This document shows positions 2,881-23,851 of a stretch of 32,000 nt of DNA, in pieces (the first letter of the stretch is position 1; each line of letters opens with the position of its first letter). Under the pieces are notes generated by a model. That model made no database searches, was not told the origin of the DNA, and worked only from the letters and a program-made list of their open reading frames with translations. Both the position numbers and the translations under genes were made by a program. The stretch lies in contig NZ_CP072453.1 of NCBI RefSeq assembly GCF_019343475.1, positions 1,411,223 to 1,443,222 on the forward strand. The letters are read 5' to 3'. This DNA comes from Providencia sp. R33 (GTDB taxonomy: Bacteria > Pseudomonadota > Gammaproteobacteria > Enterobacterales > Enterobacteriaceae).

Positions 2881-3555
2881 ATGATCAATCTATTTATTAC
2901 CGGGACAGATACAGATGTCGGGAAGACAGTATCGACGCTTGCAATCTTGCAAGCACTCAATGGGCAAGGAATTAAGGCGGTAGGTTATAAACCTATTGCA
3001 GATCAATGTATTGATACCCCTGAAGGAGTCAGGAATAAAGATGCATTACTGATCCATAGCGTATCTAAAGACCTCGTTTCTTATGATGAAGTAAATCCTA
3101 TTCGTATTACGGATAACTACAGTCATGAAAACAGCATTGATTTTAGTAAGATAAAACAAGGTTTAGAACATTTAAATGACCAATGCGACATGGTAGTCAT
3201 CGAGGGAAATGGCGGTTGGCGTTATTTACTGGATGATAATACCTTTTACGCAGATTGGCTGAAAGGGCAATCCGTTGGTGTCATTTTGGTCGTGGGAATT
3301 CAACACGGTTGTGTTAATCATGCGCTTTTAACGGCTGATGCGATTAGGGCGGATGGTTTACCATTGATCGGTTGGATGGCTAATCGAATTAATCCTGGGC
3401 TTGCGCATTATGCACAAATTATTGACCGCTTACAGCACCACATCAAGGCTCCATTGATTGGCGAAATTCCGTATTTATTGCGACCGGAAGAGCGTGATTT
3501 AGGGCATTACTTGCATATCGAAAAATTACAGGAATTTATTACTGTACCTGCATAA
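2881..3555 (+). CDS. ynfK: Dethiobiotin synthetase paralogue (BioD2/YnfK)
   Basis: 224 aa. It has the P-loop FITGTDTDVGKT and the motifs GYKP, RNKDAL, EGNGGW and LPLIGWMANRINPGLAHYAQII, which are typical of BioD/YnfK. It is adjacent to mlc as in E. coli. Confidence 0.85.
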   Translation: MINLFITGTDTDVGKTVSTLAILQALNGQGIKAVGYKPIADQCIDTPEGVRNKDALLIHSVSKDLVSYDEVNPIRITDNYSHENSIDFSKIKQGLEHLNDQCDMVVIEGNGGWRYLLDDNTFYADWLKGQSVGVILVVGIQHGCVNHALLTADAIRADGLPLIGWMANRINPGLAHYAQIIDRLQHHIKAPLIGEIPYLLRPEERDLGHYLHIEKLQEFITVPA

Positions 3556-3576
3556 TCGATTGGAAAATAAGAAGTG

Positions 3577-3606
3577 AAAGGGCGACTGAGTCGCCCTTTA
3601 TTTTGT
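3577..3606. terminator. Bidirectional rho-independent terminator between ynfK and ynfD
   Basis: Stem aaagggcgac (3577-3586) pairs with gtcgcccttt (3590-3599) around a 3-nt loop. It is flanked by A-rich sequence on the left and T-rich sequence on the right, and lies between convergent genes. Confidence 0.6.
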
Positions 3607-3619
3607 TACTTATTAAACT

Positions 3620-3853
3620 CTAGTGACGAGTATAAATAATTTTGTATGAATCATTTTGGCAGTGACCGACAACTTGCCCTTTGGCAGGGTCAACTTCATC
3701 ATTAGGAACAGCAACTAAACTAAAATTATCGGCAGGCACGCCATTATTGATAATTTTCTGTTTAATTTCCTCTATCACGCTTTCACATGACGCTTGAGCA
3801 AAGGCTGGTACTAACATCGCTAAGAATAATGGAATTAATAATTTCTTTTGCAT
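3620..3853 (-). CDS. ynfD: Small periplasmic DUF1161-family protein (YnfD-like)
   Basis: I moved the start to the internal ATG at 3853, which is preceded by GGAGAA. The signal peptide is MQKKLLIPLFLAMLVPAFAQA, and the mature part is a small Cys-containing domain. Its position beside ynfB matches E. coli. Confidence 0.65.
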   Translation of the reverse strand: MQKKLLIPLFLAMLVPAFAQASCESVIEEIKQKIINNGVPADNFSLVAVPNDEVDPAKGQVVGHCQNDSYKIIYTRH

Positions 3854-5177: not shown

Positions 5178-6806
5178 CTATTCAAGGCCTAAAATATGCT
5201 TATCTTTTGGGTAGCTCAACGTATAATTAAACGGAATTTCAATCTGTTGATTGGGCTCTAATGCCACTTCCCAGGTTAATTCTCCTGTTGTTTTATTCAC
5301 TACCGCCTGTTTATTATCTATTTCAGATACCTTGATTTCACTGTCTTGGCTAACTGGTAATTGGTCAATAATCGTCAGATTAATTGGCTTCGCATGCATA
5401 TTTTTGGCTTTAATTAAATAGCCTTCTTTTTGCTCGATAGTCGAACCAATAAAACTTGGTTTTTTCTTCATTTTTTCATTACTTTCACGAGAAATCTGAA
5501 TGTTTTTATCGATGCCAAAAGGAATGAATAGGGTATCGCTTAGTTGATTGGTATTAATTTGGAAATTACCAATATAGGTATTTCCATAATAAATATTGGC
5601 ATTACCATTGAGTAAATTCAGTGCCTGCCAATTATCGATATCCGCTTGTAAGAAGACGTCTTCAGCCAATTTTGGTGTCGCCGTGTATTGGTATTTCCCT
5701 GTAACATCTGTTTGTTTGATGGTTAACGAATTAGGTTTCGTACTGCTTTTTAGGCTATAAGGTAATGAAATATCATAGTTTAAATTGATACCATTGTTTG
5801 AAGCAGTGACAAAATCGGCAATGCCTGAGCTATCCCGCTGTTTTTTTTCACGCATACTGCTTTCTGCCATTGCAACGGGGGCAGGAGCCTGTCGCATTAA
5901 GGCTTGGGATTCATACTGCACGCTGTCATCGTAAACCGATAATCGCCACGGTTGCAGGTTAAACGGTGTAATATTTTTAGACGGATTAACCGAGGATAAG
6001 GTTAAATTGACGTCTTTCCAATCAATCCCTGTATTTTGCACAATATTAGCTTTGTAGGTCAGAACAATAGGGGATTCAGCATCTTGGCTACGAAAATCAT
6101 AACTTGGGGACCATGCAGCATCAGGCGTAAGGTAAGAAAGCTGTATGTGTGCTGTGGTCTCATTTTTAGCATCTATGACCATAACGACTTGGGTTTGCTG
6201 ACCGACGACAGCGGGTGTATTTTCGTCAATCTGCGCTTGTAATAAGGCATTTTTTTCTTCAAGTGCATCAATTGAGGTTTGGTTTTGCTGCTGTTCTTGC
6301 AGTATTTGCGTCATTTGTTGGCGGATAAAACTCAATTTCTGCGATGATTGCTCAATAGTTTGGCTGTTACTTTCACCAAAAAAACGCTGATCTTTCAATA
6401 ACGATAATTGTTCTTCACCCACTTTAATTGCAATATTCAAGTTTTCAATTTGTTGGTTATTCTGTTTCTGTTGTTCTTGAAGGGCAGTTATTTCAGGGGA
6501 ATAAATAGGGGGAATAGCAACTTTTTGGACATTGATTGAGCGAATAATAACATCATCGTTTTTCAGGCTAACTGACAATGTGCGCGGGTCAATATTTGCT
6601 GCAATATTGGTTAATACGATGTCATTTTGGCCTTGTTTAAGTGACAGCGTCACATTATTATCTAACTCCGCCCCGCGTAAAAATATCGTCGCATGGTTTA
6701 GTTTAACACTTTGATTTAAATTACTTTCTGTTTGAGCAAGCGCATGGTTAGCTGCAAGAAGTGATGTCAAAAGTAAGCCACTTGCAATACGAATGGAAAC
6801 CGTCAT
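5178..6806 (-). CDS. Secreted DUF4139/DUF4140-type protein (MuiA-like family), function unknown
   Basis: A long clean ORF of 542 aa. It has a signal peptide (MTVSIRIASGLLLTSLLAANHALA) and a central Q-rich coiled coil. The family assignment is from memory of this architecture only. Confidence 0.7.
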   Translation of the reverse strand: MTVSIRIASGLLLTSLLAANHALAQTESNLNQSVKLNHATIFLRGAELDNNVTLSLKQGQNDIVLTNIAANIDPRTLSVSLKNDDVIIRSINVQKVAIPPIYSPEITALQEQQKQNNQQIENLNIAIKVGEEQLSLLKDQRFFGESNSQTIEQSSQKLSFIRQQMTQILQEQQQNQTSIDALEEKNALLQAQIDENTPAVVGQQTQVVMVIDAKNETTAHIQLSYLTPDAAWSPSYDFRSQDAESPIVLTYKANIVQNTGIDWKDVNLTLSSVNPSKNITPFNLQPWRLSVYDDSVQYESQALMRQAPAPVAMAESSMREKKQRDSSGIADFVTASNNGINLNYDISLPYSLKSSTKPNSLTIKQTDVTGKYQYTATPKLAEDVFLQADIDNWQALNLLNGNANIYYGNTYIGNFQINTNQLSDTLFIPFGIDKNIQISRESNEKMKKKPSFIGSTIEQKEGYLIKAKNMHAKPINLTIIDQLPVSQDSEIKVSEIDNKQAVVNKTTGELTWEVALEPNQQIEIPFNYTLSYPKDKHILGLE

Positions 6807-7035
6807 AGTAAAACTCCAAATATAAAGGTCAAAATTAGATAAATGGGCGATTTACTCATCATATTTTATCCGCTTGCCACTTGATAACAGATAAAGCCTA
6901 AAATATAGATACCCCTATTTGTCAAAAAATGTAATTCAGTGATAAAACCGAGAGAAAGTAAGAGGGGAAATACTTCAATTTCGCAGATAAAAGGCCATGA
7001 AATATTATATGGCCATTGCCTATCTAATAAAAAAA

Positions 7036-9595: not shown

Positions 9596-9755
9596 GTGAC
9601 CACATCTATATGAGTAAATAAGCTGATAATTATAGAGGTAATGCACCGTCATATTTTTGTTTGGCGTCAAGTGCCAGTCAATAACTTTAGGGGAAGATAA
9701 ATGCGCATATCGAAGGTAATGAAATATTTATTAGATAAAACTAAGTCTAGAACCG

Positions 9756-9825
9756 AAAAAGAACCAACACAATTAACCAGCCAGAACGCTGGATTTCTTC
9801 ATTTTATACCTAGGTTCGCATAATG
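9756..9825 (+). repeat. 70-bp direct repeat, copy 1 of 3 (phage right-end sequence plus XerC arm)
   Basis: The sequence aaaaagaaccaacacaattaaccagccagaacgctggatttcttcattttatacctaggttcgcataatg is identical at 9756-9825, 19816-19885 and 29876-29945. Confidence 0.9.
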
Positions 9826-9840
9826 TATAACGCTATGTTA
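9813..9840 (+). other. attL: hybrid dif/attP site (XerC arm GGTTCGCATAA, centre TGTATA, degenerate XerD-side ACGCTATGTTA)
   Basis: The XerC arm and the first 2 central nt are identical to the intact dif at 29933. The sequence diverges from the third central nucleotide onward. Confidence 0.8.
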
Positions 9841-9904
9841 CAAAAGGGTTCTGAGTGATTGCGGTAGAATGGTTTTGGGGTTTACCGCAATCGGGAAGGT
9901 TCGT

Positions 9905-9933
9905 CTTTACACATAGCGTGCATTGTGCGAATC
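9905..9933 (-). other. Inverted second dif-like site (attP2-like)
   Basis: The minus strand reads GATTCGCACAA TGCACG CTATGTGTAAAG, versus dif GGTTCGCATAA TGCATA TTATGTTAAAT. The XerC arm matches 9/11, the centre 4/6 and the XerD arm 7/11. It base-pairs with 9811-9838. Confidence 0.65.
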
Positions 9934-9976
9934 TACTAGGCTAAAATCTGAGAAATCATTAAAGGGTTTTATTAAT

Positions 9977-10243
9977 TCATCTTTTGCCATCATTTAACTC
10001 TTTTTTATTAGATAATTCTATTACTGTATTAAAAAGATAATCATCTGCTACATCTAAAATAATGCCGATACCTTGATACTCGTCTTCATCACTACCTTTT
10101 AAGATTTCTCCTTCAGCCCCCTCAGTTTTCACAAACTCATAAATATCTTCAATTAAAAATGTAATTAATTCTGCTCTTGATTTTCTATTATTGTTTTTAT
10201 CATTAATTAACCATTTATTAATTTCTAATTTAATTTTATTCAT
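9977..10243 (-). CDS. Hypothetical small acidic cytoplasmic protein (cargo module gene 4)
   Basis: 88 aa. An AAGAGG RBS lies 5 nt upstream of the ATG. It is rich in E/D (GAEGEILKGSDEDEYQG, LDVADDY) and has no hydrophobic segment. I recognise no family. Confidence 0.65.
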   Translation of the reverse strand: MNKIKLEINKWLINDKNNNRKSRAELITFLIEDIYEFVKTEGAEGEILKGSDEDEYQGIGIILDVADDYLFNTVIELSNKKELNDGKR

Positions 10244-10273
10244 GTGACCTCTTATCTTTTCATCTTGTGTTAA

Positions 10274-11026
10274 TCAATCGCCTGCTACTATTTTAATTTC
10301 CCGCATTGGAATATTATTTAACTCAGTAATGTTAAATATATACGTATCATCTTCAAGCTCTTTGTCTTTATTGATTTTTTTAGCAATAAAATAATCATTA
10401 TACTTATTGACTATTACATATGTCATATTATTCTTTTCAATTGAATAAAATACTGATTTAGTTCTTGCACCATATTTACCCAGTGAAGTAATTATTAATG
10501 AAAATATAATTAAAATAAAAAGAATTGCTAACATATCGGTTGACAACCTTGTTTCTCTAACGCTGGATTTTCTATCTACCAACTCTTTTTCAATATTATT
10601 ATTGATGCTCTCAAAAATATTTTTCGATTTCTCTTTGAATGGGAAAGATACAATAACAACTAGCAATGCAAATATCCCTATAGAAATAGCTAAGTATTTA
10701 AAATTCACATTACCATTCAAAAATAAAATCATTAACATGATGATAAATAGGAAAAAATAAGAGAATAGGTTTTTTGCTATTTTACCTATAATACCCAATG
10801 GGTTTATTAAGCTTACAAGCATATCCATTATCCCTGTGATTATGAATATAAACATAAACAACCCAAAGCCCATCTGTAATAAGTTCATTATACTTATGGA
10901 AATAAGGTCTTTTGAATAATTAAAATGGTTTGCATAACCTAATTCAAAAAAATAAGCAGAGCAATAAGAAGCACTTGTTATTATAGCAAGAAGTAGTGTT
11001 TCTTTTTTTAAAATACATTTAATCAT
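10274..11026 (-). CDS. Hypothetical polytopic membrane protein (cargo module gene 3)
   Basis: 250 aa with about 5 long hydrophobic helices (LLLAIITSASYCSAYFF, FGLFMFIFIITGIMDMLVSL, LFSYFFLFIIMLMILFL, LAISIGIFALLVVIVSF, LAILFILIIFSLIITSL). A soluble C-terminus of about 60 aa follows. It is tightly packed with its neighbours. Confidence 0.7.
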   Translation of the reverse strand: MIKCILKKETLLLAIITSASYCSAYFFELGYANHFNYSKDLISISIMNLLQMGFGLFMFIFIITGIMDMLVSLINPLGIIGKIAKNLFSYFFLFIIMLMILFLNGNVNFKYLAISIGIFALLVVIVSFPFKEKSKNIFESINNNIEKELVDRKSSVRETRLSTDMLAILFILIIFSLIITSLGKYGARTKSVFYSIEKNNMTYVIVNKYNDYFIAKKINKDKELEDDTYIFNITELNNIPMREIKIVAGD

Positions 11027-11042
11027 AACATACTCATTTAGC

Positions 11043-11231
11043 TTACAATTTCCATCTTACTAGCGCACAGAAAGCAGTTGCAGCTCCTAAATATAACGTA
11101 TATTTCCATTCAATGGCGTTAACTTTAGATGTGAGTAAAAACATGGCGAACGTTAATACTCCTAAAATTATGGCGGCTTTACCTGCATAATAAGAAATCA
11201 TTGCATTCATATCATCATTAAAATTTGACAT
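11043..11231 (-). CDS. Hypothetical 62-aa two-helix membrane peptide (cargo module gene 2)
   Basis: A GAGG RBS lies 5 nt upstream of the ATG. There are two hydrophobic segments (AAIILGVLTFAMFLL and LYLGAATAFCALV). The stop is 16 nt before the next gene. Confidence 0.6.
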   Translation of the reverse strand: MSNFNDDMNAMISYYAGKAAIILGVLTFAMFLLTSKVNAIEWKYTLYLGAATAFCALVRWKL

Positions 11232-11244
11232 TATAACCTCAAAT

Positions 11245-11278
11245 GTTCGTCTTTACACATAGAGTGAATTTTGTGAAT
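11245..11278 (+). repeat. Degenerate second copy of the attP2-like arm
   Basis: gttcgtctttacacatagagtgaattttgtgaat matches 9899-9932 (gttcgtctttacacatagcgtgcattgtgcgaat) at 30/34 positions, in direct orientation. The first 18 nt are perfect. Confidence 0.8.
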
Positions 11279-11964
11279 TAATTATCTTCATTTTTAAGTG
11301 TCTTAACTTTAAAAATTACAGAGTCACTAGATACGATGTCAGGACTGCCATCCCACGTAATAGAGCCTTTATTTCTATATGTAAATAAGAGTTCTGTTGG
11401 AAATTCATTATCTGATTTAGCAGCCCATAATTCACGAAGATATTTAAGTTTAATCGGTGCATTAGCACTTATTAACGCCATTAAAACCAGTCTATCTTTT
11501 AACGTTGGAAGATTGTTACTATTAATTTTCGAATCAATAACATTGTTAATCGACAGCTCTAATTCTTTGATTTTTTCTTCATTACCATCAATTGCTTTTA
11601 TTTTATTGTCAACCAGTGAAATTATTTCATTTTTCAATGTTTCTTTGACTTTTTCTAATGTATTTTCATCATCATTTTCGTTAATTTCATTAGGTTTTTT
11701 CCAAATATGCTCTCTCATATCTGTCACTGTATCTTTCATCATAGAGAATGTATCCGAATATAACTTATCAAATAGCTTTTCTAATCTTTCAACGTTTGAT
11801 TGAATTTCACTTGCTGCCTTTGTTGTTTCTTTAGCAGCCTCGTTAGACATTTTAAAAAATACGATTGATAGCCAAATCGCACCAACAGCAAGCAGTAAGG
11901 AGGCTATGGATGCAATAAAACTAATAATTTCAAATATACTTTGCATAGTGTTTGTGGTTTCCAT
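11278..11964 (-). CDS. Hypothetical membrane-anchored coiled-coil protein (cargo module gene 1)
   Basis: An N-terminal TM helix (IFEIISFIASIASLLLAVGAIWLSIVFF) is followed by a long charged helical region and a C-terminal globular domain of about 80 aa. I placed the start at the ATG at 11964, whereas the ORF-track start at 11970 is GTG. No convincing RBS is present, so the start is uncertain. Confidence 0.6.
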   Translation of the reverse strand: METTNTMQSIFEIISFIASIASLLLAVGAIWLSIVFFKMSNEAAKETTKAASEIQSNVERLEKLFDKLYSDTFSMMKDTVTDMREHIWKKPNEINENDDENTLEKVKETLKNEIISLVDNKIKAIDGNEEKIKELELSINNVIDSKINSNNLPTLKDRLVLMALISANAPIKLKYLRELWAAKSDNEFPTELLFTYRNKGSITWDGSPDIVSSDSVIFKVKTLKNEDN

Positions 11965-11993
11965 TTTCACAAATGTTACAAGGAATATGAAAA

Positions 11994-12015
11994 CCCCCGT
12001 GCTGTACTACGGGGG
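11994..12015 (-). terminator. Rho-independent terminator after the 77-aa gene
   Basis: The minus strand reads cccccgt-agtacagc-acggggg followed by ttttc. It is a 7-bp GC-rich stem. Confidence 0.55.
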
Positions 12016-12087
12016 TAGTCTCAGGATAACTACAATATTTCAGGCAACTATCTAAAAACAAAACATATTATCATTTCTGTAATTATT

Positions 12088-12321
12088 TTATTTTTTTATG
12101 TCACTTTTGAAAAATAGCTCTCCATTTTCATTTACATCTACATCATGAATTTTGTTCTCTAAGACAAAGTGAACAATATCAGATTCTCTATACACCGCTT
12201 TAAGCCCATTCATAATATTTTTTCTTGTTAAATTATAAGAAATTTCTTTTAAATCAGCGGATTCTGTGTCTTTTAGCCTAACTGTTTTAATCAGTGGTTC
12301 TGTCATATTTTTTTCTCTCAT
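12088..12321 (-). CDS. Small protein divergent from rep; candidate phage repressor (positional analogue of CTXphi RstR), possible ribbon-helix-helix fold
   Basis: 77 aa, transcribed divergently from the replication operon across an operator-like repeat region. The pattern KTVRLKD + TESADLKEISYNL + TRKNIMNGLKAVY fits beta-alpha-alpha. The function is an inference only. Confidence 0.5.
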   Translation of the reverse strand: MREKNMTEPLIKTVRLKDTESADLKEISYNLTRKNIMNGLKAVYRESDIVHFVLENKIHDVDVNENGELFFKSDIKK

Positions 12322-12343
12322 TAGTTGCCTACTCAGATCCTAT

Positions 12344-12433
12344 AACATGTATACATATTTTCAATTACTAGTTGACATGTAATATGTAACAGGTATATCT
12401 TCAAATGAAATATAATTTGTAATATGTATACAT
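12344..12433. promoter_or_regulatory. Divergent control region with repeated operator-like motifs
   Basis: The 10-bp palindrome ATGTATACAT occurs at 12347-12356 and 12424-12433. TGTAATATGTA occurs at 12378-12388 and 12418-12428. TTGACA (12372-12377) is followed 16 bp later by TATATC (12394-12399), and a TATAAT lies at 12411-12416. Confidence 0.5.
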
Positions 12434-12633
12434 GGTATTTTATGAACATTGTCTATTTCGATTTTATAGAAGGGTATGGCATTAACGCTCAAGTCGGTAT
12501 TGAGTGGGATTTTTACCGTTCCTTTGAGGAATTGATTAAAGAGTGTTCAAACTGCTTTCACGATAATTTTATCTTAGCGCCAACCACGGCTATTTCAGGG
12601 AATTTCTTAGGTTACAGGGAGAGCTTGCTATGA
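12424..12633 (+). CDS. Hypothetical 69-aa ORF upstream of rep (coding status uncertain)
   Basis: Its stop overlaps the rep start (ATGA at 12630-12633), suggesting translational coupling. There is no clear RBS, and the start codon sits inside the operator-like palindrome. Confidence 0.3.
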   Translation: MYTWYFMNIVYFDFIEGYGINAQVGIEWDFYRSFEELIKECSNCFHDNFILAPTTAISGNFLGYRESLL

Positions 12634-13769
12634 GTAATCAATCAACTCGCTCTGTTTTTATTGACTATTTAGCTTTTTCCGCACCCATTTCAGTCATGAA
12701 AGATGTTCATACTTTTCAAGAAAAGGGTTTTGAATGGCGTAAATTTCAATATTTACCTTCTTATCGTCATTATCAAACTGAACCACGTTATGCATGTTTG
12801 CCTGAGTTTCAAGGGATCCCCGAGATCCCATCAAACACTATGACCGATGAGCAGTTAAATCAATATGATACTGACTTAATAGAATGCTATTTTTCTCGTT
12901 TAAAAACATGGATAGCTTCTGTTTTTGGCTTAGTTATGGGGCTGCCAAGGGGTAAGGGCGGTTTTGCATATAGTGATTCCGCACTGTTGTATAGTGACCA
13001 AGGTGGCTCAGATCATTGCGGTGTGATTTTTTGGGGAGGTAATAACGATACATTTTATGTTCAAATTTCAGGTTTAGGTTGTGCTCATGTATTTAGTGGA
13101 ACAACACCACAAAAAATTCATAAGTGGTTAAAACACCTTGATATTTTTACATTAAAACGTCTCGACTTAGCAACCGATGATTATGATGGGATTTTTACCT
13201 GTCAAGCGGCATTACGGGATTATCGTTTTGATGCGTTCTATGGTGGAGCAGGTCCCAAACCTAAACTCGATACATCAAATGGCATTGATGCCAATGGATG
13301 TGTGACAAAAGAAATCGTCAATATTGGTTCTCGTCAATCTCGTATTTACTGGCGTATTTACAATAAAGCATTGGAACAAAAGGTTTCGGGTATTTGGTAT
13401 CGTTCAGAGGTCGAGTTAAAAGGGCTTTCAATTGATACATTGCTAAATATCGCAGGAATTTATACTGGGCTATGTGATTATTCTGCTCAAATTAATCCGA
13501 CTGTACCAACTTCTATTCCACCGCTTTTTGTTCGTAAAGCCATTGATTCCATTGAAGCAAAAGTTCGATGGTTACGCAAACAGGCATCAGCAACGCTTGC
13601 TAAAGTTTTTCATTATCATGAAGGTGATATGTTAAAAGTTTTTTCTATGGTTCTTAGGGAAGAACACCTTGAAGATCTAAATGTACGTTTTGATATACCG
13701 CCTATATATCACACTTTATACCAAACTTTAATGAGCGAAAAATTAAAGCTTTCTCAAACACCTTTTTAA
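12630..13769 (+). CDS. Rolling-circle replication initiator, Rep_trans family (RstA-like; functional analogue of Ff gpII)
   Basis: 379 aa with a GGGAGAG RBS. It has Rep_trans-type motifs: FIDYLAFS, HCGVIFWGG..FYVQISGLGC, RLDLATDDYDG and RIYWRIYNK...YRSEVELKG. It is first in the plus-strand operon and shows no resemblance to M13 gpII. Confidence 0.8.
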   Translation: MSNQSTRSVFIDYLAFSAPISVMKDVHTFQEKGFEWRKFQYLPSYRHYQTEPRYACLPEFQGIPEIPSNTMTDEQLNQYDTDLIECYFSRLKTWIASVFGLVMGLPRGKGGFAYSDSALLYSDQGGSDHCGVIFWGGNNDTFYVQISGLGCAHVFSGTTPQKIHKWLKHLDIFTLKRLDLATDDYDGIFTCQAALRDYRFDAFYGGAGPKPKLDTSNGIDANGCVTKEIVNIGSRQSRIYWRIYNKALEQKVSGIWYRSEVELKGLSIDTLLNIAGIYTGLCDYSAQINPTVPTSIPPLFVRKAIDSIEAKVRWLRKQASATLAKVFHYHEGDMLKVFSMVLREEHLEDLNVRFDIPPIYHTLYQTLMSEKLKLSQTPF

Positions 13770-13791
13770 AAATAATTAGGATGAATTTATT

Positions 13792-14067
13792 ATGATTAAA
13801 ATTGAATTAAACGCTGAAGATTGTGCAGTTAAAACAAAAGAAGTCACTTCAACTCGTACAGGTGAAATTTTACATTTCCGTGAGCAAAAAGCCTATATTT
13901 ATAATGGCGGTATTTATCCCAAGCAATTCATGATTGGTCTGGAAAAAGATCAGGCTGCATATCCTGCGGGCTTTTATACATTATCTATAGATTCATATGA
14001 TGTGGGGGATTTTGGTGCATTAAAATTCTCTCGAAATATTAAATTAATCCCCATTGATAAAAAATAA
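13792..14067 (+). CDS. ssDNA-binding protein, homologue of Ff gene V protein
   Basis: 91 aa. MIKIEL... and QAAYPAGFYTLSIDSYDVGDFGALKF...IKLIP align with M13 g5p MIKVEI... and QPAYAPGLYTVHLSSFKVGQFGSLMI...LRLVP. Confidence 0.9.
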   Translation: MIKIELNAEDCAVKTKEVTSTRTGEILHFREQKAYIYNGGIYPKQFMIGLEKDQAAYPAGFYTLSIDSYDVGDFGALKFSRNIKLIPIDKK

Positions 14068-14094
14068 ATTTAATTAATTTTAATAGGAAAGGGC

Positions 14095-14211
14095 ATGTTT
14101 AATTTCGAACCGTCATTACTTTTTGAGTTAAGAGATTTTATTTATGTCGTTTCTGGTTTCATTGTTTTTTTATTGTCATTTATTGCTGGTCGCTTAACCG
14201 CTCCGAGGTAA
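14095..14211 (+). CDS. Minor coat protein, gVII-like (38 aa)
   Basis: Not in the ORF track because it is under 60 aa. An AGGAAAGGG RBS precedes MFNFEPSLLFELRDFIYVVSGFIVFLLSFIAGRLTAPR, a single hydrophobic helix. Position and size match Ff pVII. Confidence 0.6.
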   Translation: MFNFEPSLLFELRDFIYVVSGFIVFLLSFIAGRLTAPR

Positions 14212-14213
14212 TT

Positions 14214-14315
14214 ATGCTTGGATTAATTGCGTTATTTTCATCAATTGTTGCTTCAGGTTTTGCGGCTGGTTATCTCGTCGGTTTTTTTGACCGATTAACT
14301 CGTGAACTATCCTAG
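14214..14315 (+). CDS. Minor coat protein, gIX-like (33 aa)
   Basis: Not in the ORF track. It starts 2 nt after the previous stop and encodes MLGLIALFSSIVASGFAAGYLVGFFDRLTRELS. Position and size match Ff pIX (32 aa). Confidence 0.6.
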   Translation: MLGLIALFSSIVASGFAAGYLVGFFDRLTRELS

Positions 14316-14326
14316 AAAGGTGATTT

Positions 14327-14560
14327 ATGTTTAAAAAAACATTAGCAACAATCATTGTTGCTACCGCGTCCATCGCTTCTCCTGCTGTTTTTGCAGCTGA
14401 AACACCAACGTCAACAGTTCCGCAAGCTGCGCAAGATGCAATTACAGGAGTTGGCAGTACCGCAACGGGCATGATTGATTTGGCGTGGCCTGTTATCGCG
14501 CTTGTTGTCGGTGGTTTCTTAGCCATTAAGATGTTTAAAAAAGTGGCATCAAAAGTCTAA
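14327..14560 (+). CDS. Major coat protein (gVIII homologue)
   Basis: 77 aa. It has a signal peptide ending AVFA|AE, an acidic/neutral N-terminus, a hydrophobic core and a basic C-terminus (IKMFKKVASKV), compared with IKLFKKFTSKAS in M13. An AAAGGTGA RBS is present. Confidence 0.9.
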   Translation: MFKKTLATIIVATASIASPAVFAAETPTSTVPQAAQDAITGVGSTATGMIDLAWPVIALVVGGFLAIKMFKKVASKV

Positions 14561-14589
14561 CGCTATTGACTCAGCGTTATATCCTCTTT

Positions 14590-14612
14590 GGGGCTTCGTG
14601 CCCCATTTTTTT
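14590..14612 (+). terminator. Rho-independent terminator after gVIII
   Basis: ggggc-ttcgt-gcccc followed by attttttt. This is the same location as the strong terminator after gene VIII in Ff phages. Confidence 0.7.
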
Positions 14613-14632
14613 AAATAACAAGGTTTTCAATT

Positions 14633-16369
14633 ATGCGTTTTATTTTCTTTTTATTACTCGGTTTTAGTTTCTATTCTAATGCGGTAATTAAAACGTATAA
14701 TGTGACATTATCTGATACCAATTATAAAGTCTCTCAATATGACCCTAATACGGGTTTTTGGTCTTCATCATTTACTCTTGAATATCCGCTTCAAACTTAT
14801 CAAGCGAGTGATTGTTTTCTTGAACGTAGTTTTTCTATTGCTCCGAGAACGATTGCCGAAAAATATATTAAACTACCGAATAGAAACCCAAATGCATCTC
14901 CGCCATCATTATCGGTTAAATTTAATCCAAAGGTAAAATGTACAGTTGATTGGGTTGAGGATAAACCAAAATATTCATTAACCGATAAAGCCAATTCAGC
15001 GATATTAACGATAACTTATCGCGCTTTTTATTGCCCTAATGAATCTGCTTATTCTTACAATAATTTAGATAAAAAAGAAGGATGTCCCTCTATTGAGCAT
15101 GGTAGCTTGGAAGAATATTGTTTAAAACAACCCACGTTATATAACACTACAGTTAAAAACCCAACGCATGATGGTAAAGATTATATATTTAATAATGCAG
15201 AAAATGGCTGTAAATACTTTTCAGTTGGTTCCGTTATATTAAAACAAGAAAATCCACTTCGTATTACAAGTGATTGGGCAACAATTGGAGTCGCTGATTT
15301 AGATACTGGTGATAGCGAAATTATCGAAAATGATAATGGTAATGATGGTGGTAACGGCAGTGAAGGTGGTAACGGCAGTGAAGGTGGTAACGGCAGCGAA
15401 GGTGGTAACGGCAGCGAAGGTGGTAACGGCAGTGAAGGTGGTAACGGCAGTGAAGGTGGTAACGGCAGCGAAGGTGGTAACGGCAGCGAAGGTGGTAACG
15501 GCAGCGAAGGTGGTAACGGCAGCGAAGGTGGTAACGGCAGCGAAGGTGGTAACGGCAGCGAAGGTGGTAACGGCAGCGAAGGTGGTAACGGCAACGAAGG
15601 CGGTAATGGAGGCGGGAGTGCGTCAGGTGAATATGCCGGTATTTTAAACTCAATTCGTACAGATACACAAAGTATCAGTAAAACCACATCATCCATGGAT
15701 AAAAACCTGAATTCCATCAAAGATAAAGCATCATCGATAGACGATAGGCTCGCTAATATTGATGGAAACGTTGCAAAGATTGAGCGTTATTTACGCCCAG
15801 AAGAACACTCTTTTTCCGAATGGCTGAATTCTTTTGATACCACTTACAGCACCTATTTTAGCCCCTCGATTAAAGAGCCTAATTCAATATTTAATGCCGA
15901 ATTTGGGTATCGCAATGACAATGAGTTTTCACTGTATGGGGATATCGCCTCCAATATGCAAGGAGATGCGTTTGTCAGGTCATTTTCAAATATCTATCGA
16001 GAACAATTGTCAGGTTTAACTTCCCACTTACCAAGCAATTTACAACTGTCTTCGATTGCCAATCAATTAGACGGTTCGATTCGTTCTGATACGATTGATT
16101 TTAGAGACGATTTTAAAGCTTATGGGACATTTACCTCAATTTTTGGAGTGGGTGATTTAGTCAAATCCATTTATCAAGTTTTGCCCAAGTATAAAGAATG
16201 CACTCCGATTATCTTATTTGGTGGGTATCCTTATGAGTTTTCTATTTCTTGCGAATACATAAATAAAATCAAAGACTTTCTTTATTACGTCTTTTTCTTT
16301 TTTACATTGTGGTTCACGTTCACGAAATTAATGCATTCAATTTCAGCAACGCCCGCAAAAGAAAGTTAA
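14633..16369 (+). CDS. Adsorption/minor coat protein (gIII homologue)
   Basis: 578 aa. It has the signal peptide MRFIFFLLLGFSFYSNA, a Cys-containing N-terminal region and a long (GGNGSE)n linker. The C-terminus GYPYEFSISCEYINKIKDFLYYVFFFFTLWFTFTKLMH...KES resembles M13 g3p GKPYEFSIDCDKINLFRGVFAFLLYVATFMYVFSTFANILRNKES. Confidence 0.9.
   Translation: MRFIFFLLLGFSFYSNAVIKTYNVTLSDTNYKVSQYDPNTGFWSSSFTLEYPLQTYQASDCFLERSFSIAPRTIAEKYIKLPNRNPNASPPSLSVKFNPKVKCTVDWVEDKPKYSLTDKANSAILTITYRAFYCPNESAYSYNNLDKKEGCPSIEHGSLEEYCLKQPTLYNTTVKNPTHDGKDYIFNNAENGCKYFSVGSVILKQENPLRITSDWATIGVADLDTGDSEIIENDNGNDGGNGSEGGNGSEGGNGSEGGNGSEGGNGSEGGNGSEGGNGSEGGNGSEGGNGSEGGNGSEGGNGSEGGNGSEGGNGSEGGNGNEGGNGGGSASGEYAGILNSIRTDTQSISKTTSSMDKNLNSIKDKASSIDDRLANIDGNVAKIERYLRPEEHSFSEWLNSFDTTYSTYFSPSIKEPNSIFNAEFGYRNDNEFSLYGDIASNMQGDAFVRSFSNIYREQLSGLTSHLPSNLQLSSIANQLDGSIRSDTIDFRDDFKAYGTFTSIFGVGDLVKSIYQVLPKYKECTPIILFGGYPYEFSISCEYINKIKDFLYYVFFFFTLWFTFTKLMHSISATPAKES
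15347..15598 (+). repeat. 14 x 18-bp in-frame tandem repeat (ggtggtaacggcagYgaa) encoding the GGNGSE linker of pIII
   Basis: I counted units from 15347. There are thirteen GGNGSE units and then one GGNGNE unit. Units differ only at the synonymous agt/agc position. Confidence 0.9.
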
Positions 16370-16387
16370 TACCAAAAGGAGCGCATT

Positions 16388-16726
16388 ATGCCGTTATTAC
16401 TGGCTTGGTTACCTGCACTGATTACATGGTTGTTTAATGCATGGCGTATTTACGTTGCAGCTTCTTTTTTATGGAAAATCATTAAATATATTGCAGGTGT
16501 CATTATTACCTATGCTGTAGTGAACTATGTTTTTGGTGGATTTATCTCGGCACTCATTAATTGGGTCTCAACTTCATTAACGTATATTTCCCCGTTTATT
16601 GATGCCTTTTCGTTATTTTTACCCTCAAATTTTGAAACCTGCGTTTATATCATCATTTCAGATTACGTTCTTGCCATGGTTTTGTCATGGAAACATCGTA
16701 TTGCAACGGCATTAGGAGCGATTTAA
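16388..16726 (+). CDS. Minor coat protein (gVI homologue)
   Basis: 112 aa, the same length as M13 pVI, and hydrophobic. LFLPSNFETCVYIIIS aligns with M13 LILPSNALPCFYVILS. An AAGGAG RBS is present. Confidence 0.85.
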   Translation: MPLLLAWLPALITWLFNAWRIYVAASFLWKIIKYIAGVIITYAVVNYVFGGFISALINWVSTSLTYISPFIDAFSLFLPSNFETCVYIIISDYVLAMVLSWKHRIATALGAI

Positions 16727-16888
16727 GTGGATTTTACTGTGTGGGACGTTATGGCATTTGCGTTCTCAATGTTTCTTTTATCTTATATAAGGTGATGTTA
16801 TGTCTATCATCCCGTTTATACCGACACGCCTTGAATATTACTATGGTCATTTAACGCATTCATATGCTTATTCACTTTAGGAGGGGAA

Positions 16889-17920
16889 ATGGCGGTCTAT
16901 TTTGTCACGGGTAAACTCGGTTCAGGAAAAACACTCTCAGCCGTGTATAAAATCCGCGATTACTTAATGAATGGGCGTAAGGTGGCGACAAACTTAAATA
17001 TCTCGTTAACAGGGATGTTTGGTTATCACGCCAAAAATATTAATCTGGTACGTATTCCTGATAAACCCAATATCATTGATTTAGAGTCAATTGGGCGCGG
17101 TAATTCTACTTACGATGAGTCACTCAATGGCTTACTGGTCTTGGACGAATGCGGAACATGGTTTAACTCGCGTTCTTGGGCAGATAAGAGCCGACAGGAG
17201 TTAATCAATTGGTTTGCACATGCGCGAAAGCTCGGCTGGGATATTCTTTTCCTTGTGCAAAGTCTTCATGTTGTCGATAAACAGAGTCGATTGATGTTTG
17301 CGGAACACGTGGTGTATTGCCGTCGTGCTGACCGTTTAAAAATCCCCTATATTCATTGGTTATTGCAATTAGTGACATTAGGGCATTTTCAACTCCCGAA
17401 AATCCACATGGCTATCGTGAAATACGGGGATTCACCGACTGCATTAGTCACTGACCGTTGGTTTTACCAAGGTGGGCCTTTGTATTCCGCTTATGACACC
17501 AAACAGCAATTTTCTGATTTCTATGCGCATGGGGCATTTTGTGTTTTGCCTCCGCATTACTACGTCTTAAAACGCACAAAAATTAATGTGAGCTTTTTTA
17601 TGCGCTTAACAAAAATCTATTTCAAACGCTCTAAACGACTCAGCTTAATTCTTTTGGGAATATTCCTGTGCCTTTCAGGGCAATTTTTTTATCACAAGTA
17701 TTGGCCATCAACGTCAGAAACACCCATCTTGCCACTTTCTGACGTTTTTATTGATTCTTACGTGAAGCACGGTAATCAGACTCAATACCGATTTTCAACA
17801 CCAAATGGCATTTTATCTGAAGACGATTTAACAAATGCAGGCATAAAAATTTCGCAGGTATCGCCCTGTAAAGTGTCATTAAATTTAAATGGGGTTTCAC
17901 ATGAAGTCACATGTAAATAG
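16889..17920 (+). CDS. Assembly ATPase (gI homologue, Zot family)
   Basis: The N-terminus MAVYFVTGKLGSGKTL is identical to M13 pI, and LLVLDECGTWFNSRSW, HARKLGWDI.FLVQ and EHVVYCRR are conserved. It has a Walker A motif and a TM segment, and a GGAGGGG RBS. Confidence 0.92.
   Translation: MAVYFVTGKLGSGKTLSAVYKIRDYLMNGRKVATNLNISLTGMFGYHAKNINLVRIPDKPNIIDLESIGRGNSTYDESLNGLLVLDECGTWFNSRSWADKSRQELINWFAHARKLGWDILFLVQSLHVVDKQSRLMFAEHVVYCRRADRLKIPYIHWLLQLVTLGHFQLPKIHMAIVKYGDSPTALVTDRWFYQGGPLYSAYDTKQQFSDFYAHGAFCVLPPHYYVLKRTKINVSFFMRLTKIYFKRSKRLSLILLGIFLCLSGQFFYHKYWPSTSETPILPLSDVFIDSYVKHGNQTQYRFSTPNGILSEDDLTNAGIKISQVSPCKVSLNLNGVSHEVTCK
17600..17920 (+). CDS. In-frame internal product of gI (pXI-like)
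   Basis: The internal Met238 (MRLTKIYFKRSKRLSLILLGIF) aligns with the M13 pXI start MKLTKIYLKKFSRVLCLAIGF. Use of this start here is an inference. Confidence 0.45.
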   Translation: MRLTKIYFKRSKRLSLILLGIFLCLSGQFFYHKYWPSTSETPILPLSDVFIDSYVKHGNQTQYRFSTPNGILSEDDLTNAGIKISQVSPCKVSLNLNGVSHEVTCK

Positions 17921-19229
17921 CTTGATAGGGGCGTTCTTATTGTGGTGCTCCTGCGCACACGCTCAATTACTAGAAATGAATAATGCGCCCATGACGGAGT
18001 TTGTGAATTGGTATTCGCAGCTATCAGGAAAGGGCGTTGTTTTACCCAGCAATTTTGATGGGCGAATTACCATTTATAATTCGGATGTGGACGCCTCTAA
18101 TATTGATGCTTTTTTTATTTCAGTCCTGGCTTCTCGTGGTTATGAAGTTGTGTCTGGGAGTCCACTGATTATTAAAGCGAACCCGACTATTGATGTGAAA
18201 CAAACGCGCCTTAATATGACACCGCTTGAAAGTAATGATGATTCCAACAGCTTAGATTATCAAGATAATGGCTCATCACTGGACAATTTATTAGATTATC
18301 CAGTTCAATCCGCACCTAAGTTTTTGGAGATGGAAACACGCACCTTTAAATTTCAGCGTATTACGGCTAAATCTGCCTTACCCGTTGTCGATATCTATTT
18401 AAAATCATTACCCACATCAGGTTCACACGTCGTGCTCGATGCGGCTTCCAATTCACTGATTGTGACGACCGTTAAAGGCAACTTTGATAATATTGGCTCC
18501 TTTATTCGTGATATTGACGTGAAAACAGAACAAGTTCTGATTGAAGCGATTATGTTCGAGGTTGGCAAAGGTTCATCGTTTGATTTTTCATTTGCAGCAG
18601 GTAAGCGTTCAGATTCAAACATTGTTGGGGGTATCAATACCACCTCATTATCCGACTCTCTGACCTCCAAGGGAGCGGCATTTGGCATATTCTCAGGCAA
18701 CATATTATCGTTGGCATTAACAGCTGTAGAAGGCGCTCAGGACTCAAAAATTTTGTCTGTACCCCGTATTTTAACCTTATCAGGCTCTGAGGGCTTTATC
18801 TCTTCAGGCCAAAACGTGCCGATTGTGACAGGAAAACTGGTTGGAGAGGGCGTTGACGCCAAAAATCCGTTCCAAACCATCACGCGCCGTGATGTAGGAA
18901 TTAACTTACGGGTTACGCCTATCGTACTGGGTGACGGTTCGATTATGTTAGATTTATCGTCTAATTCCGGCTCAATTTCTAATGTTACCGCAGCTTCCGA
19001 TATCATTTTAAACGAACGCACCATTAAGACGACCGTTCAGCTTAAAGATGGTGATACATTGCTTATTGGTGGGTTAATTCAACATAACGCGATTAATCAA
19101 AAAGACTCAACACCTATTGCGTCTTCTATCCCGTTAATTGGTTGGATGTTTGATTCCACCTCAGAATCTGAAACTGAAAACACCATGTATATTTTGATTA
19201 GAGCTCGGATTGTTTCGCCTTTATCCTAA
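17901..19229 (+). CDS. Outer-membrane secretin (gIV homologue)
   Basis: I chose the start at the ATG at 17901, giving the signal peptide MKSHVNSLIGAFLLWCSCAHA|Q. It overlaps the end of gI, as in Ff. LLEMNNAPM..FV.WYS, ILSVPRILTLSG, GQNVP, NPFQTI.RRDVGI and LL.GGL follow M13 pIV. Confidence 0.92.
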   Translation: MKSHVNSLIGAFLLWCSCAHAQLLEMNNAPMTEFVNWYSQLSGKGVVLPSNFDGRITIYNSDVDASNIDAFFISVLASRGYEVVSGSPLIIKANPTIDVKQTRLNMTPLESNDDSNSLDYQDNGSSLDNLLDYPVQSAPKFLEMETRTFKFQRITAKSALPVVDIYLKSLPTSGSHVVLDAASNSLIVTTVKGNFDNIGSFIRDIDVKTEQVLIEAIMFEVGKGSSFDFSFAAGKRSDSNIVGGINTTSLSDSLTSKGAAFGIFSGNILSLALTAVEGAQDSKILSVPRILTLSGSEGFISSGQNVPIVTGKLVGEGVDAKNPFQTITRRDVGINLRVTPIVLGDGSIMLDLSSNSGSISNVTAASDIILNERTIKTTVQLKDGDTLLIGGLIQHNAINQKDSTPIASSIPLIGWMFDSTSESETENTMYILIRARIVSPLS

Positions 19230-19278
19230 TTTTTTATTACGTTACATTCTAATTATTTATCAATCTCTCTTTTAATCA

Positions 19279-19340
19279 GAACCCTGTTAGCGATGTTCGC
19301 TCACTGCGAGAGCGGGGGGCGGATATCGCTAATGGGGTTT
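19279..19340 (+). other. GC-rich imperfect hairpin in the post-gIV intergenic region (candidate packaging signal or minus-strand origin)
   Basis: ttagcgat (19287-19294) pairs with atcgctaa (19325-19332). An outer accc/ggggt extension and an inner cgctc/gagcg stem are also present. The location corresponds to the Ff intergenic region. Confidence 0.4.
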
Positions 19341-19455
19341 CTATTAACAGTCATTTTATTTATGAATATAGCTTTTGTGATTATATCAGAATAAAGTTTC
19401 TTTATATGCCGTTAGGCATGTAAGGCGACACGCTAAAATTTCAGAAATACCCAAA

Positions 19456-19488
19456 GCTCGCTCGCCGATAAAACGGGCGGGCTTTTTT
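19456..19488 (+). terminator. Terminator-like hairpin with T6 tract in the intergenic region
   Basis: gctcgctcgccg-ataaaa-cgggcgggc (imperfect stem) is followed by tttttt. Confidence 0.4.
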
Positions 19489-19519
19489 GAAAAACACGAA
19501 ACCGCGCTTGCGCCACTGG

Positions 19520-19548
19520 TTGACAGGATTTTAATTGTTCGATCTAAT
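19520..19548 (+). promoter_or_regulatory. Candidate sigma70 promoter for the 72-aa ORF
   Basis: TTGACA at 19520-19525, a 17-bp spacer, then TCTAAT at 19543-19548, about 70 nt upstream of the ATG at 19618. Confidence 0.35.
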
Positions 19549-19617
19549 AGCAACTCAACAGTTTTATGGTCGAAGACGAAAGAATCTTTCAGCGATAATT
19601 TATAGGGAATGAATTAA

Positions 19618-19836
19618 ATGAAGACTGTTTGGATTGATGAAGAATCTTTTTTGCAAATGGCTAAAATTGGCTGGATTGACTATAGCAATGCACGTTTAGA
19701 TAACAATAAGTTGCTTGGTATCGAATTACCGCCAAGACGCAAAAATGGCAATAATACGCATTTCAAAATGACGTTAACCGATGTAACAAGGTTCATTAAT
19801 GACTATAACGAAGCCAAAAAGAACCAACACAATTAA
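19618..19836 (+). CDS. Hypothetical 72-aa protein adjacent to attP
   Basis: ORF with an AGGGA RBS. Its last codons and stop lie inside the 70-bp repeat, 37 nt before the XerC arm. I recognise no family. Confidence 0.55.
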   Translation: MKTVWIDEESFLQMAKIGWIDYSNARLDNNKLLGIELPPRRKNGNNTHFKMTLTDVTRFINDYNEAKKNQHN

Positions 19837-19885
19837 CCAGCCAGAACGCTGGATTTCTTCATTTTATACCTAGGTTCGCATAATG
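19816..19885 (+). repeat. 70-bp direct repeat, copy 2 of 3
   Basis: Identical to 9756-9825 and 29876-29945. Confidence 0.9.
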
Positions 19886-19900
19886 TATAACGCTATGTTA
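19873..19900 (+). other. Phage-phage junction dif-like site (equals attP1 as in the circular phage genome)
   Basis: GGTTCGCATAATGTATAACGCTATGTTA, identical to attL. Phage sequence lies on both sides. Confidence 0.8.
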
Positions 19901-19964
19901 CAAAAGGGTTCTGAGTGATTGCGGTAGAATGGTTTTGGGGTTTACCGCAATCGGGAAGGTTCGT

Positions 19965-19993
19965 CTTTACACATAGCGTGCATTGTGCGAATC
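19965..19993 (-). other. Inverted dif-like site (attP2-like), copy 2
   Basis: Identical to 9905-9933 (+10,060). Confidence 0.65.
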
Positions 19994-20036
19994 TACTAGG
20001 CTAAAATCTGAGAAATCATTAAAGGGTTTTATTAAT

Positions 20037-20303: not shown

Positions 20304-20333
20304 GTGACCTCTTATCTTTTCATCTTGTGTTAA

Positions 20334-21086: not shown

Positions 21087-21102
21087 AACATACTCATTTA
21101 GC

Positions 21103-21291: not shown

Positions 21292-21304
21292 TATAACCTC
21301 AAAT

Positions 21305-23829: not shown

Positions 23830-23851
23830 AAATAATTAGGATGAATTTATT

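Follow-up and report, generated by a model that had tools for sequence, protein, structure and literature searches.

We analyzed a 32,000-nucleotide stretch of the Providencia sp. R33 genome (contig NZ_CP072453.1, positions 1,411,223 to 1,443,222; hereafter the window), which carries the prophage of a filamentous phage (inovirus), and focused on a block of four minus-strand genes that lies between the phage attachment site (attP) and a repressor-like gene of this prophage. The results indicate that the block is very probably not one module but a mosaic of separately mobile accessory genes: a cargo slot, bounded by a terminator-like hairpin on one side and by an attP arm (site B) on the other, holds two cargoes, units A and B, that have been fused. 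By analogy with known phage hotspots, the cargo genes may be expressed in the lysogen and act in exclusion of, or defence against, other phages, a proposal to which we give slightly less than even odds. Taken together, slot structure and exclusion/defence role form the best overall explanation of the block, with a probability of roughly 0.55.

Boundaries of the cargo slot and the junction between its units

The four genes encode proteins of 88, 250, 62, and 228/230 amino acids (aa). An initial annotation of the window had placed them at 9977-11970, between attP and the repressor-like gene; all four open reading frames (ORFs) were confirmed to be intact and recur at +10,060 in a second prophage copy. 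They are separated by short gaps of 16-46 nt, and the GC content of the block is 0.283, compared with 0.386 in the rest of the phage and 0.39 in the host flank. The AT-richness noted in the initial annotation was thus correct, although its figures of 30 versus 40-48% GC have to be replaced by 28 versus 39%. Such a low-GC composition is typical of mobile accessory genes, and both main cargo families, those of the 230-aa and 250-aa proteins, are AT-rich relative to every carrier phage. In a comparison with a relative, the 250-aa gene had a ratio of nonsynonymous to synonymous substitutions (dN/dS) of 0.12-0.15; the 62-aa gene was close to this, at 0.13, and the 88-aa gene reached 0.66. Because of the low ratios of the 250-aa and 62-aa genes and the more than 460 full-length homologues of the 230-aa protein, we regard the four ORFs as more than chance reading frames. 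The block had been described as extra, foreign-looking cargo of an Ff/CTXphi-type prophage, beside attP and on the repressor strand, which agrees with our data; it had also been held to explain the size of the phage relative to M13, but it supplies only ~2 kb of the ~3.65-kb excess.

Related inoviruses (loci numbered with the prefix L) were gathered via protein hits and the two boundary motifs, and their Rep proteins are 54-70% identical to that of the window. The hairpin lies on the downstream side of the repressor-like gene. In all related loci it precedes every cargo unit, occurring twice in the two-cassette arrays L023 and L024, and its nucleotide sequence is conserved, the stem being invariant and the loop variable. 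Site B directly abuts the cargo block in the window, and every related inovirus locus has it conserved immediately behind the final cargo gene. Between these two elements the relatives carry at least 12 other gene sets, and one slot (L015) is empty. The L016 slot encodes a CAP12/Pycsar-type protein with a Toll/interleukin-1 receptor (TIR) domain (Pfam, 4e-21; PADLOC TIR effector, 1e-13, PDC-S35) together with a 104-aa protein; the L006 slot, a SIR2_2 protein (PDC-S25, 8e-7) and a DUF6953 protein; the L045 slot, a Fic/DOC protein (4.8e-15); and the L010 slot, a PDC-S31-like protein (8e-8). The defence matches in L016, L006, and L010 are at the level of domains, not of complete validated systems. 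Further slot sets encode proteins of 132, 98, and 297 aa, of 140 aa, of 116 aa, of 88 and 70 aa, and of 175 and 132 aa, as well as a paralogue of the 250-aa family. The slot therefore has the features by which a hotspot is recognized, namely a fixed position, contents that vary among close relatives, and recognised defence genes in some members.

Comparison of these loci also showed that the pieces of the block are separable. A homologue of the 230-aa gene stands alone in L003, L004, and L008 (56% identity), with site B immediately after it, while L009 carries the 62-, 250-, and 88-aa genes (79, 84, and 72% identity) in the same order but without the 230-aa gene. Genes of the 250-aa family without 62-aa or 88-aa companions were found in L010, in the Proteus mirabilis phages L023-L025, and in L018 and L020-L022. 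Relatives of the 88-aa gene occur without the other cargo genes in L011-L014, where they are truncated at codon 82, and without a start codon in L043, where an unrelated 82-aa gene lies upstream. A degenerate copy of site B, with its degeneracy in the XerC-type arm, separates the 230-aa stop codon in the window from the ribosome-binding site and start codon of the 62-aa gene. Because homology to L003 stops and homology to L009 starts at this relic, the window phage joins an L003-type cargo (unit A, the 230-aa gene) to an L009-type cargo (unit B, the other three genes). As judged from these alignments, the relic is the scar of the fusion between units A and B. In its simplest and most likely history, two different inoviruses would have integrated in tandem at dif, and one backbone would then have been deleted, fusing the two units and leaving the site B relic behind. 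The Proteus loci contain such arrays, in which full as well as reduced elements end in site B plus the other attP arm, site A. An integron-like or pdif-module mechanism for the slot was rejected. The sites that flank unit B are in direct orientation, and the inner one is degenerate, unlike those of pdif modules. The coordinates of all features are given in Table 1.

In three P. mirabilis strains (L023, 5737-7279; L024, 5737-7594; L025, 5737-6160), the same inovirus was found at the same chromosomal site, and the strains differ in a second mini-element, in which ~250 nt and the hairpin are followed by one or two genes and then by sites B and A. Such loci are arrays, at dif, of Xer-type elements that have been cut down to little more than cargo and an att site.

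Table 1. Positions of the slot boundaries, cargo genes, and attachment sequences in the window, and of distant relatives of the 230-aa gene.
Feature	Position	Copy 2	Strand	Remarks
Hairpin element (GTAGTTATCCTGAGACTACCCCCGTAGTACAGCACGGGGGTTTT)	11990-12035	22050-22095	-	Left slot boundary; 8-bp GC stem and T-run, terminator-like
228-aa protein, cargo unit A	11278-11964 (230 aa from GTG at 11970)	21338-22024	-	phrog_36054, 8.5e-60
Degenerate site B relic (AATTCACAAAATTCACTCTATGTGTAAAGACGAAC)	11245-11279	21305-21339	-	Junction alignment with L003, L009, and L010
62-aa small membrane peptide	11043-11231	21103-21291	-	Only with the closest 250-aa relatives
250-aa polytopic inner-membrane protein, core of unit B	10274-11026	20334-21086	-	ORF, profile search, model, dN/dS
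88-aa soluble, mildly acidic protein	9977-10243	20037-20303	-	phrog_37184 match; least constrained piece
dif-like site B (GATTCGCACAA-TGCACG-CTATGTGTAAA-GACGAACC), attP arm	9898-9933	19958-19993	-	Right-hand slot boundary
dif-like site A (GGTTCGCATAA-TGTATA-...), attP arm	9813-9840	19873-19900	+	Pairs with site B in the fold of single-stranded DNA
80-nt att repeat	9750-9829	19810 and 29870	+	Repeat family D3, 96-100% identity; flanks and separates the tandem copies
77-aa repressor-like gene	12088-12321	22148-22381	-	phrog_5642 match; first gene of the minus-strand transcription unit
230-aa relatives, Limnohabitans and two Acidithiobacillus contigs	L036 7001-7681; L039 7001-8821; L040 186-2006			

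Predicted properties of the cargo proteins

The unit A protein is 228 aa long when read from the ATG at 11964, the start that its homologues use. All source-named members of its family are called hypothetical or carry a spurious coiled-coil name. In the AlphaFold model (mean pLDDT 76.5), a continuous helix spans residues 3-84 and includes a transmembrane (TM) segment at ~12-37; a low-confidence coiled region follows, and then a confident C-terminal domain at residues 155-220. This matches the single N-terminal TM helix, long charged coiled-coil region, and C-terminal globular domain that had been proposed from the translation. For the C-terminal domain, Foldseek retrieved the winged helices of Zur, F93, PadR, MarR, ScpB, and LOTUS proteins with probabilities of up to 0.97, each at an E-value of ~0.1, and the family profile led to the winged helix of RPA32 (E 0.006). 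Homologues match HTH_24, DprA_WH, Crp-like, and DUF5805 families, and some add an OST-HTH/LOTUS domain (1e-10). We therefore assign the C-terminal domain as a winged helix with putative nucleic-acid binding. The charge distribution suggests that the N-terminus faces outward and that the C-terminus is cytoplasmic. The most conserved part of the family is the TM and juxtamembrane helix at residues 20-88, which is near-identical from Providencia to Limnohabitans and Acidithiobacillus.

Outside inoviruses, a 230-aa homologue was found alone between the tail-fibre-assembly gene G and the sheath gene FI of P2-like phages, that is, in the Z/fun locus, and it is present in 10 of 5,426 complete Escherichia coli genomes. 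The Z/fun locus is described as a defence locus and hotspot of P2 (PMC13586616). No mention of the E. coli homologue (WP_061811609.1) was found in the full texts searched, and PADLOC returned nothing convincing for the genes neighbouring distant homologues.

The 250-aa protein, which is 100% identical to a protein of the Providencia sp. R33 genome, forms the core of unit B. Its close relatives are rare (6 clusters), while a profile search yielded full-length matches to 523 cluster representatives at E<=1e-3; all members checked are annotated as hypothetical and have no Pfam family. The AlphaFold model (pLDDT 87, pTM 0.82) shows five helices followed by a C-terminal five-stranded beta-domain, in line with the roughly five TM helices and soluble tail described in the initial annotation. 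According to the positive-inside rule, the beta-domain probably faces the periplasm. It resembles small SH3- or Sm-like barrels, and the fold as a whole found no match in the PDB or BFVD at E<=0.001 with Foldseek. Hits to the channels MscS and MSL10 superimposed with root-mean-square deviations of ~14-20 A, and an MscS-like channel role was rejected. The family profile gave only hydrophobic noise against PDB sequences. Distant relatives of the 250-aa protein lie between gpA and the portal gene gpQ of P2-like prophages, an interval defined as a P2 hotspot by Rousset et al., 2022 (PMC9122126). When the 250-aa and 88-aa proteins were compared by tblastn with 50,697 phage records, no match was obtained, and viral-contig scans for the same two proteins found nothing; the sequences in the deep 250-aa alignment had diverged too far for a scan to be seeded with it.

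The 62-aa peptide had been described as carrying two TM helices; one strong hydrophobic segment is present, and the second is weaker. In L009 its homologue (3501-3689) has TGA at codon 2, and the gene caller starts at an internal methionine to give 52 aa; the true start of the 62-aa gene may thus be internal (Met8 or Met11), or the N-terminal ~10 residues may be dispensable. A holin role was rejected: the peptide has no Pfam or PHROG match, and no endolysin-like gene is present in the phage. Inoviruses do not lyse their hosts. The 88-aa protein is soluble and acidic, as stated earlier, but with an isoelectric point of 4.6 and a net charge of about -6 it is not very acidic. Its gene is weakly constrained and is shortened or start-less in some relatives while its neighbours stay intact. 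Sequence and profile searches of the PDB gave nothing useful for the 88-aa protein.

When the four proteins were compared with Pfam, NCBIfam, and PADLOC, all that emerged was noise, either below threshold or of the coiled-coil or hydrophobic type. In PADLOC-DB v2, the 230-aa protein had coiled-coil-type hits to PD-T4-6 (1e-4) and Cas8b (8e-4), the 88-aa protein matched PDC-M64C at 0.03, and the 250-aa and 62-aa proteins had no hit. The earlier statement that no family could be recognized therefore stands for these three collections, but not for PHROG, in which the 230-aa, 88-aa, and repressor-like proteins match families of unknown function. Homology to holin, abortive-infection (Abi), or immunity families, which had been expected to speak against novelty, was not seen in Pfam, NCBIfam, or PADLOC.

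Possible function of the cargo and alternative explanations

We propose that the lysogen would transcribe the cargo from the repressor promoter, reading through the hairpin, and that each cargo gene would act on its own at the inner membrane, where infection by competing phages would be excluded or aborted. The 230-aa protein might couple a nucleic-acid-sensing winged helix to its conserved membrane module, and the 250-aa protein might interfere with entry at the envelope. Transcription by read-through from the repressor promoter is most likely because the hairpin ends ~30 nt before the first cargo start codon; divergent promoter-like sites were seen near the repressor-like gene (12337-12401). 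The exclusion/defence role is suggested by the position of the cargo on the repressor strand, by its alternation with TIR, SIR2, and Fic genes in the slot, and by the presence of both families in P2 hotspots. Exclusion or defence by the lysogen had already been listed among the plausible roles, and it is still the most plausible one. The gene-neighbourhood comparison called for in the initial annotation showed that the four genes are not tied together and that both main families also occur in P2-like phages.

Several observations weigh against this proposal. No PADLOC defence model and no Pfam or NCBIfam family matches any of the four proteins, so that the case for defence is one of guilt by association, and most of the other slot cargoes are likewise of unknown function. 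Defence proteins tend to evolve fast, so that the conservation of the N-terminal module of the 230-aa protein is unusual for them and hints at a cellular partner or role that is itself conserved. In Limnohabitans, a 230-aa relative lies among housekeeping genes, between EF-P/EarP and UvrC, and in two Acidithiobacillus contigs, within an island rich in toxin-antitoxin genes, the gene that immediately follows a relative encodes a ParA-like ATPase. Both contexts hint that the conserved N-terminal module has a role other than as phage cargo. The region does not contain more promoter-like sites than expected from shuffled sequence, and expression in the lysogen is putative. As for the fusion, a clean Xer exchange does not explain it, because the junction lies 7 nt beyond the XerD-type arm, outside the central spacer. 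It is because no defence model matches, because some 230-aa contexts are non-mobile, and because N-terminal conservation is extreme that we keep the functional proposal tentative.

The shared strand of the four genes, their short gaps, their common AT-richness, and the preserved 62/250/88 order in L009 would suit one integrated accessory system with interdependent parts, for example a sensor, an effector, and a regulator, and a single four-gene system was what the initial annotation had proposed. We consider this very improbable: the 230-aa gene occurs alone elsewhere and the trio occurs without it, the 250-aa gene is found without its 62-aa and 88-aa neighbours, 88-aa relatives stand alone or are defective, and the relic attP arm splits the 230-aa gene from the rest. 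The same separability weakens a second early suggestion, a membrane toxin with an acidic antidote. Unit B read as a toxin-antitoxin or addiction module that stabilises the prophage, with the 62-aa and/or 250-aa protein as toxin and the 88-aa protein as antidote, would fit a series in which a small membrane peptide and a membrane protein are followed by a soluble protein that is small and acidic, and it gains something from the Fic/DOC-family gene in the same slot of L045 and from the 230-aa relative in a toxin-antitoxin-rich island. However, the 250-aa gene is kept without an 88-aa partner in L010, in L023-L025, and in P2-like phages, which is not the obligate co-occurrence of such modules; no toxin-antitoxin family is matched; and the 88-aa gene, with its dN/dS of 0.66, is truncated or start-less elsewhere beside intact neighbours, all of which makes this explanation unlikely. 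Disruption in related prophages, which had been named as evidence against function, was indeed seen for the 88-aa gene, whereas the 250-aa and 62-aa genes are under purifying selection.

Adjacency to attP and to the lysogeny switch raises the question of whether the genes serve the life cycle of the phage itself, the 230-aa protein as a DNA tether or Xer modulator in the manner of FtsK gamma or XafT of TLCphi and the 250-aa protein in assembly or egress. A winged helix joined to a membrane anchor in the 230-aa protein and the ParA-like gene beside one of its relatives in two contigs fit such a role. Sister inoviruses with complete core sets nevertheless lack one or both genes, and the same families occur in P2-like tailed phages, which have their own integrase and a different assembly pathway. 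The FtsK gamma domain was not among the top structural matches of the 230-aa protein, and the role of an FtsK-gamma- or XafT-like Xer activator was rejected; we regard the life-cycle explanation as a whole as quite improbable. Lysogenic conversion other than defence, such as envelope remodelling, stress tolerance, or host interaction for Providencia and Proteus, would be in keeping with the inner-membrane location of both main proteins, with weak precomputed 'TfpB' flags on relatives of the 250-aa protein, and with the chromosomal, non-mobile 230-aa relative, and CTXphi is a precedent for non-defence cargo beside attP. We rate it as rather unlikely, given that the strongest contextual signal is the recurrence in P2 hotspots together with the TIR/SIR2/Fic alternation, that the architecture of the 250-aa protein is unlike that of TfpY-like pilin accessory proteins, and that no relative was seen beside a pilin gene. 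The exclusion/defence role is thus retained as the favoured, if tentative, function. A broader formulation is possible but rather doubtful: dif-integrating inoviruses of Morganellaceae would carry an exchange platform of hairpin, cargo, and attP arm, in which cargoes are stacked by tandem Xer integration and deletion, and the two cargo families would be new single-gene inner-membrane exclusion or Abi proteins shared with P2-like hotspots.

Comparison with known elements and the carrier prophage

Hotspots for accessory or defence genes in temperate phages and cargo in inoviruses are both already known kinds of arrangement. Like the P2/P4 hotspots (PMC9122126; PMC13586616), the slot has a fixed position between conserved phage elements and a variable, AT-rich content in which recognisable defence domains (TIR, SIR2) are mixed with unknown genes, and relatives of both main window proteins sit in the gpA-gpQ or Z/fun loci. 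Unlike them, it belongs to a filamentous, non-lytic, dif-integrating carrier, is bounded by a terminator-like hairpin and an attP arm instead of cos-proximal core genes, and holds cargo that can be stacked with relic att sites, any anti-phage activity of this cargo being putative. Resemblance is also evident to CTXphi and the integrative mobile elements exploiting Xer (IMEX) of Vibrio cholerae (ctxAB; RS1 and TLC arrays at dif): an Ff-type inovirus with Rep_trans, two inverted dif-like sites as the attP hairpin, tandem prophage copies, arrays of full and reduced elements at dif (here in Proteus), and cargo near the attachment region. In contrast to CTXphi, the cargo is found between attP and the repressor-like gene, on the strand opposite to the core genes, and its products are membrane proteins of unknown function instead of a secreted toxin. 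We know of no CTXphi counterpart of the hairpin that leads each cassette.

The accessory genes of the Pf phages of Pseudomonas, namely PfsE (PMC8764522), the KKP defence module (PMC11341870), and PfiTA (PMC12328805), are likewise inovirus genes that are non-essential to the phage. They act in phage-phage competition or prophage maintenance (PMC8764522; PMC11341870; PMC12328805), and PfsE, a small inner-membrane protein, mediates superinfection exclusion (PMC8764522). They have no sequence or family relationship to the window proteins, and Pf phages differ in using their own integrase instead of Xer/dif and in that a cassette-like slot is undescribed for them. Exclusion by small or medium-sized inner-membrane proteins that are encoded by prophages, expressed in the lysogen, and act alone or nearly so is exemplified by SieA and SieB of P22, Imm of T4, gp15 of HK97, and RexB of lambda. 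No homology between such single-gene exclusion proteins and the window proteins was detected with Pfam, including SieB and related families. To our knowledge, none of the proteins just named has a cytoplasmic winged helix or an architecture of five helices and a beta-domain.

The 250-aa protein resembles TfpY/FimB-like proteins (PMC11841053) and PF27470 'TfpB' in its size (235-270 aa) and in having an N-terminal helical membrane part and, after it, a C-terminal beta-containing domain that is probably periplasmic. Several of its relatives carry the weak precomputed PF27470 flags mentioned above, while the window protein itself has no Pfam hit. TfpY-like proteins have three TM helices, and the rest of their fold combines a mixed beta-sheet that includes a beta-alpha-beta motif with a helix and a sheet of three strands (PMC11841053); an assignment to this group was rejected because the model of the 250-aa protein has five helices and a single five-stranded beta-domain. 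Every genomic context examined for its relatives was a prophage slot or P2 hotspot, with no pilin gene nearby. In the literature, 'TfpB' or 'TFPb' mostly has other meanings, among them a PilB-like motor and type IVb pili. The pdif modules of Acinetobacter (PMC7399989) resemble the units described here as discrete accessory units bounded by XerC/XerD-type sites; they have inverted functional sites on plasmids, whereas the sites of unit B are direct, one is a degenerate relic, and the junction lies outside the spacer.

What is new here is the filamentous, dif-integrating carrier, the boundaries formed by a hairpin and an attP arm, the stacking with relic att sites, and two uncharacterised protein families. 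For tailed temperate phages and their satellites, the hotspots that hold defence and accessory genes have been well mapped, while dif-integrating filamentous phages are mostly known for toxins such as ctxAB. The slot is compact, sharply bounded, and easily searchable, with contents that are swapped and stacked among Providencia and Proteus inoviruses, and tandem integration at dif followed by deletion suggests a simple model for gene gain by very small phages. Two large uncharacterised membrane-protein families become tied to the cargo hotspots of two unrelated phage groups, and their window members, one gene of 690 bp and one of 750 bp, are short candidates for exclusion or defence. If the cargo is not defensive, the near-identical N-terminal module of the 230-aa protein still points to an unknown conserved membrane function.

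The prophage that carries the slot is 10,060 bp long and is present in two head-to-tail copies (9750-19809 and 19810-29869) that differ at 2 of 10,060 bases; both differences fall in the att repeat, among its first 6 nt. About 80 nt into the third copy of this repeat, at 29870, similarity to the phage ends. The array seems to have formed recently, as production of virions of the CTXphi type requires. On the plus strand lie genes for Rep_trans, gV, gVIII, a repeat-rich gIII-like protein, a gVI-like protein, Zot/gI, and the gIV secretin; matches to the Pfam families Rep_trans, Phage_DNA_bind, Phage_coatGP8, Zot, and Secretin identify the core set of the Ff/CTXphi type. None of the ORFs in the 10-kb genome was seen to encode an integrase, and for this reason we infer that this CTXphi-type, dif-integrating inovirus uses host XerCD. 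Sites A and B are inverted and ~60 nt apart, and in plus-strand single-stranded DNA they form a long imperfect hairpin (dG -27.9 kcal/mol, z -5.8, none of 200 shuffles as stable); this folded attP is of the CTXphi type. The whole 10-kb phage had no megablast match in the 50,697 phage records, neither the att region nor the slot hairpin matched a family in Rfam, a search for the site-B pattern in metagenome contigs found nothing, and PDB sequence and profile searches with the 77-aa repressor-like protein gave nothing useful.

Further features of the hairpin and the backbone were observed. Upstream of the hairpin, L003 (5925-5972) and L006 (5925-5971) have three tandem copies of an 11-nt unit, ACCCCCGTAGT, spaced about one helical turn apart; the unit equals the 5' arm of the stem and could be an iteron-like binding site or a product of replication slippage. 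A 69-aa gene just upstream of Rep (12424-12633, plus strand) is 47-92% identical in all relatives and thus among the best-conserved backbone genes. For the repressor-like gene opposite to it, a homologue was detected only in L041 (42% identity), and the length of the gene product at this position varies from 51 to 100 aa. The Rep gene of L017, an inovirus genome from IMG/VR, aligned in two overlapping pieces in different frames (5826-6934), which suggests a frameshift and may reflect a defective phage or a sequencing error in the record. Within the 578-aa gIII-like gene (14633-16369), whose product has no Pfam match, ~30 tandem 18-nt repeats occupy 15187-15735 (copy, 25247-25795) and presumably encode a repetitive linker. 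Finally, a 72-aa plus-strand ORF at the end of the phage (19618-19836; 9701-9823) extends into the 80-nt att repeat, so that its C-terminal coding part is also found at the host-phage junction, and an ORF with 62% identity is present in L015 (5196-5426).

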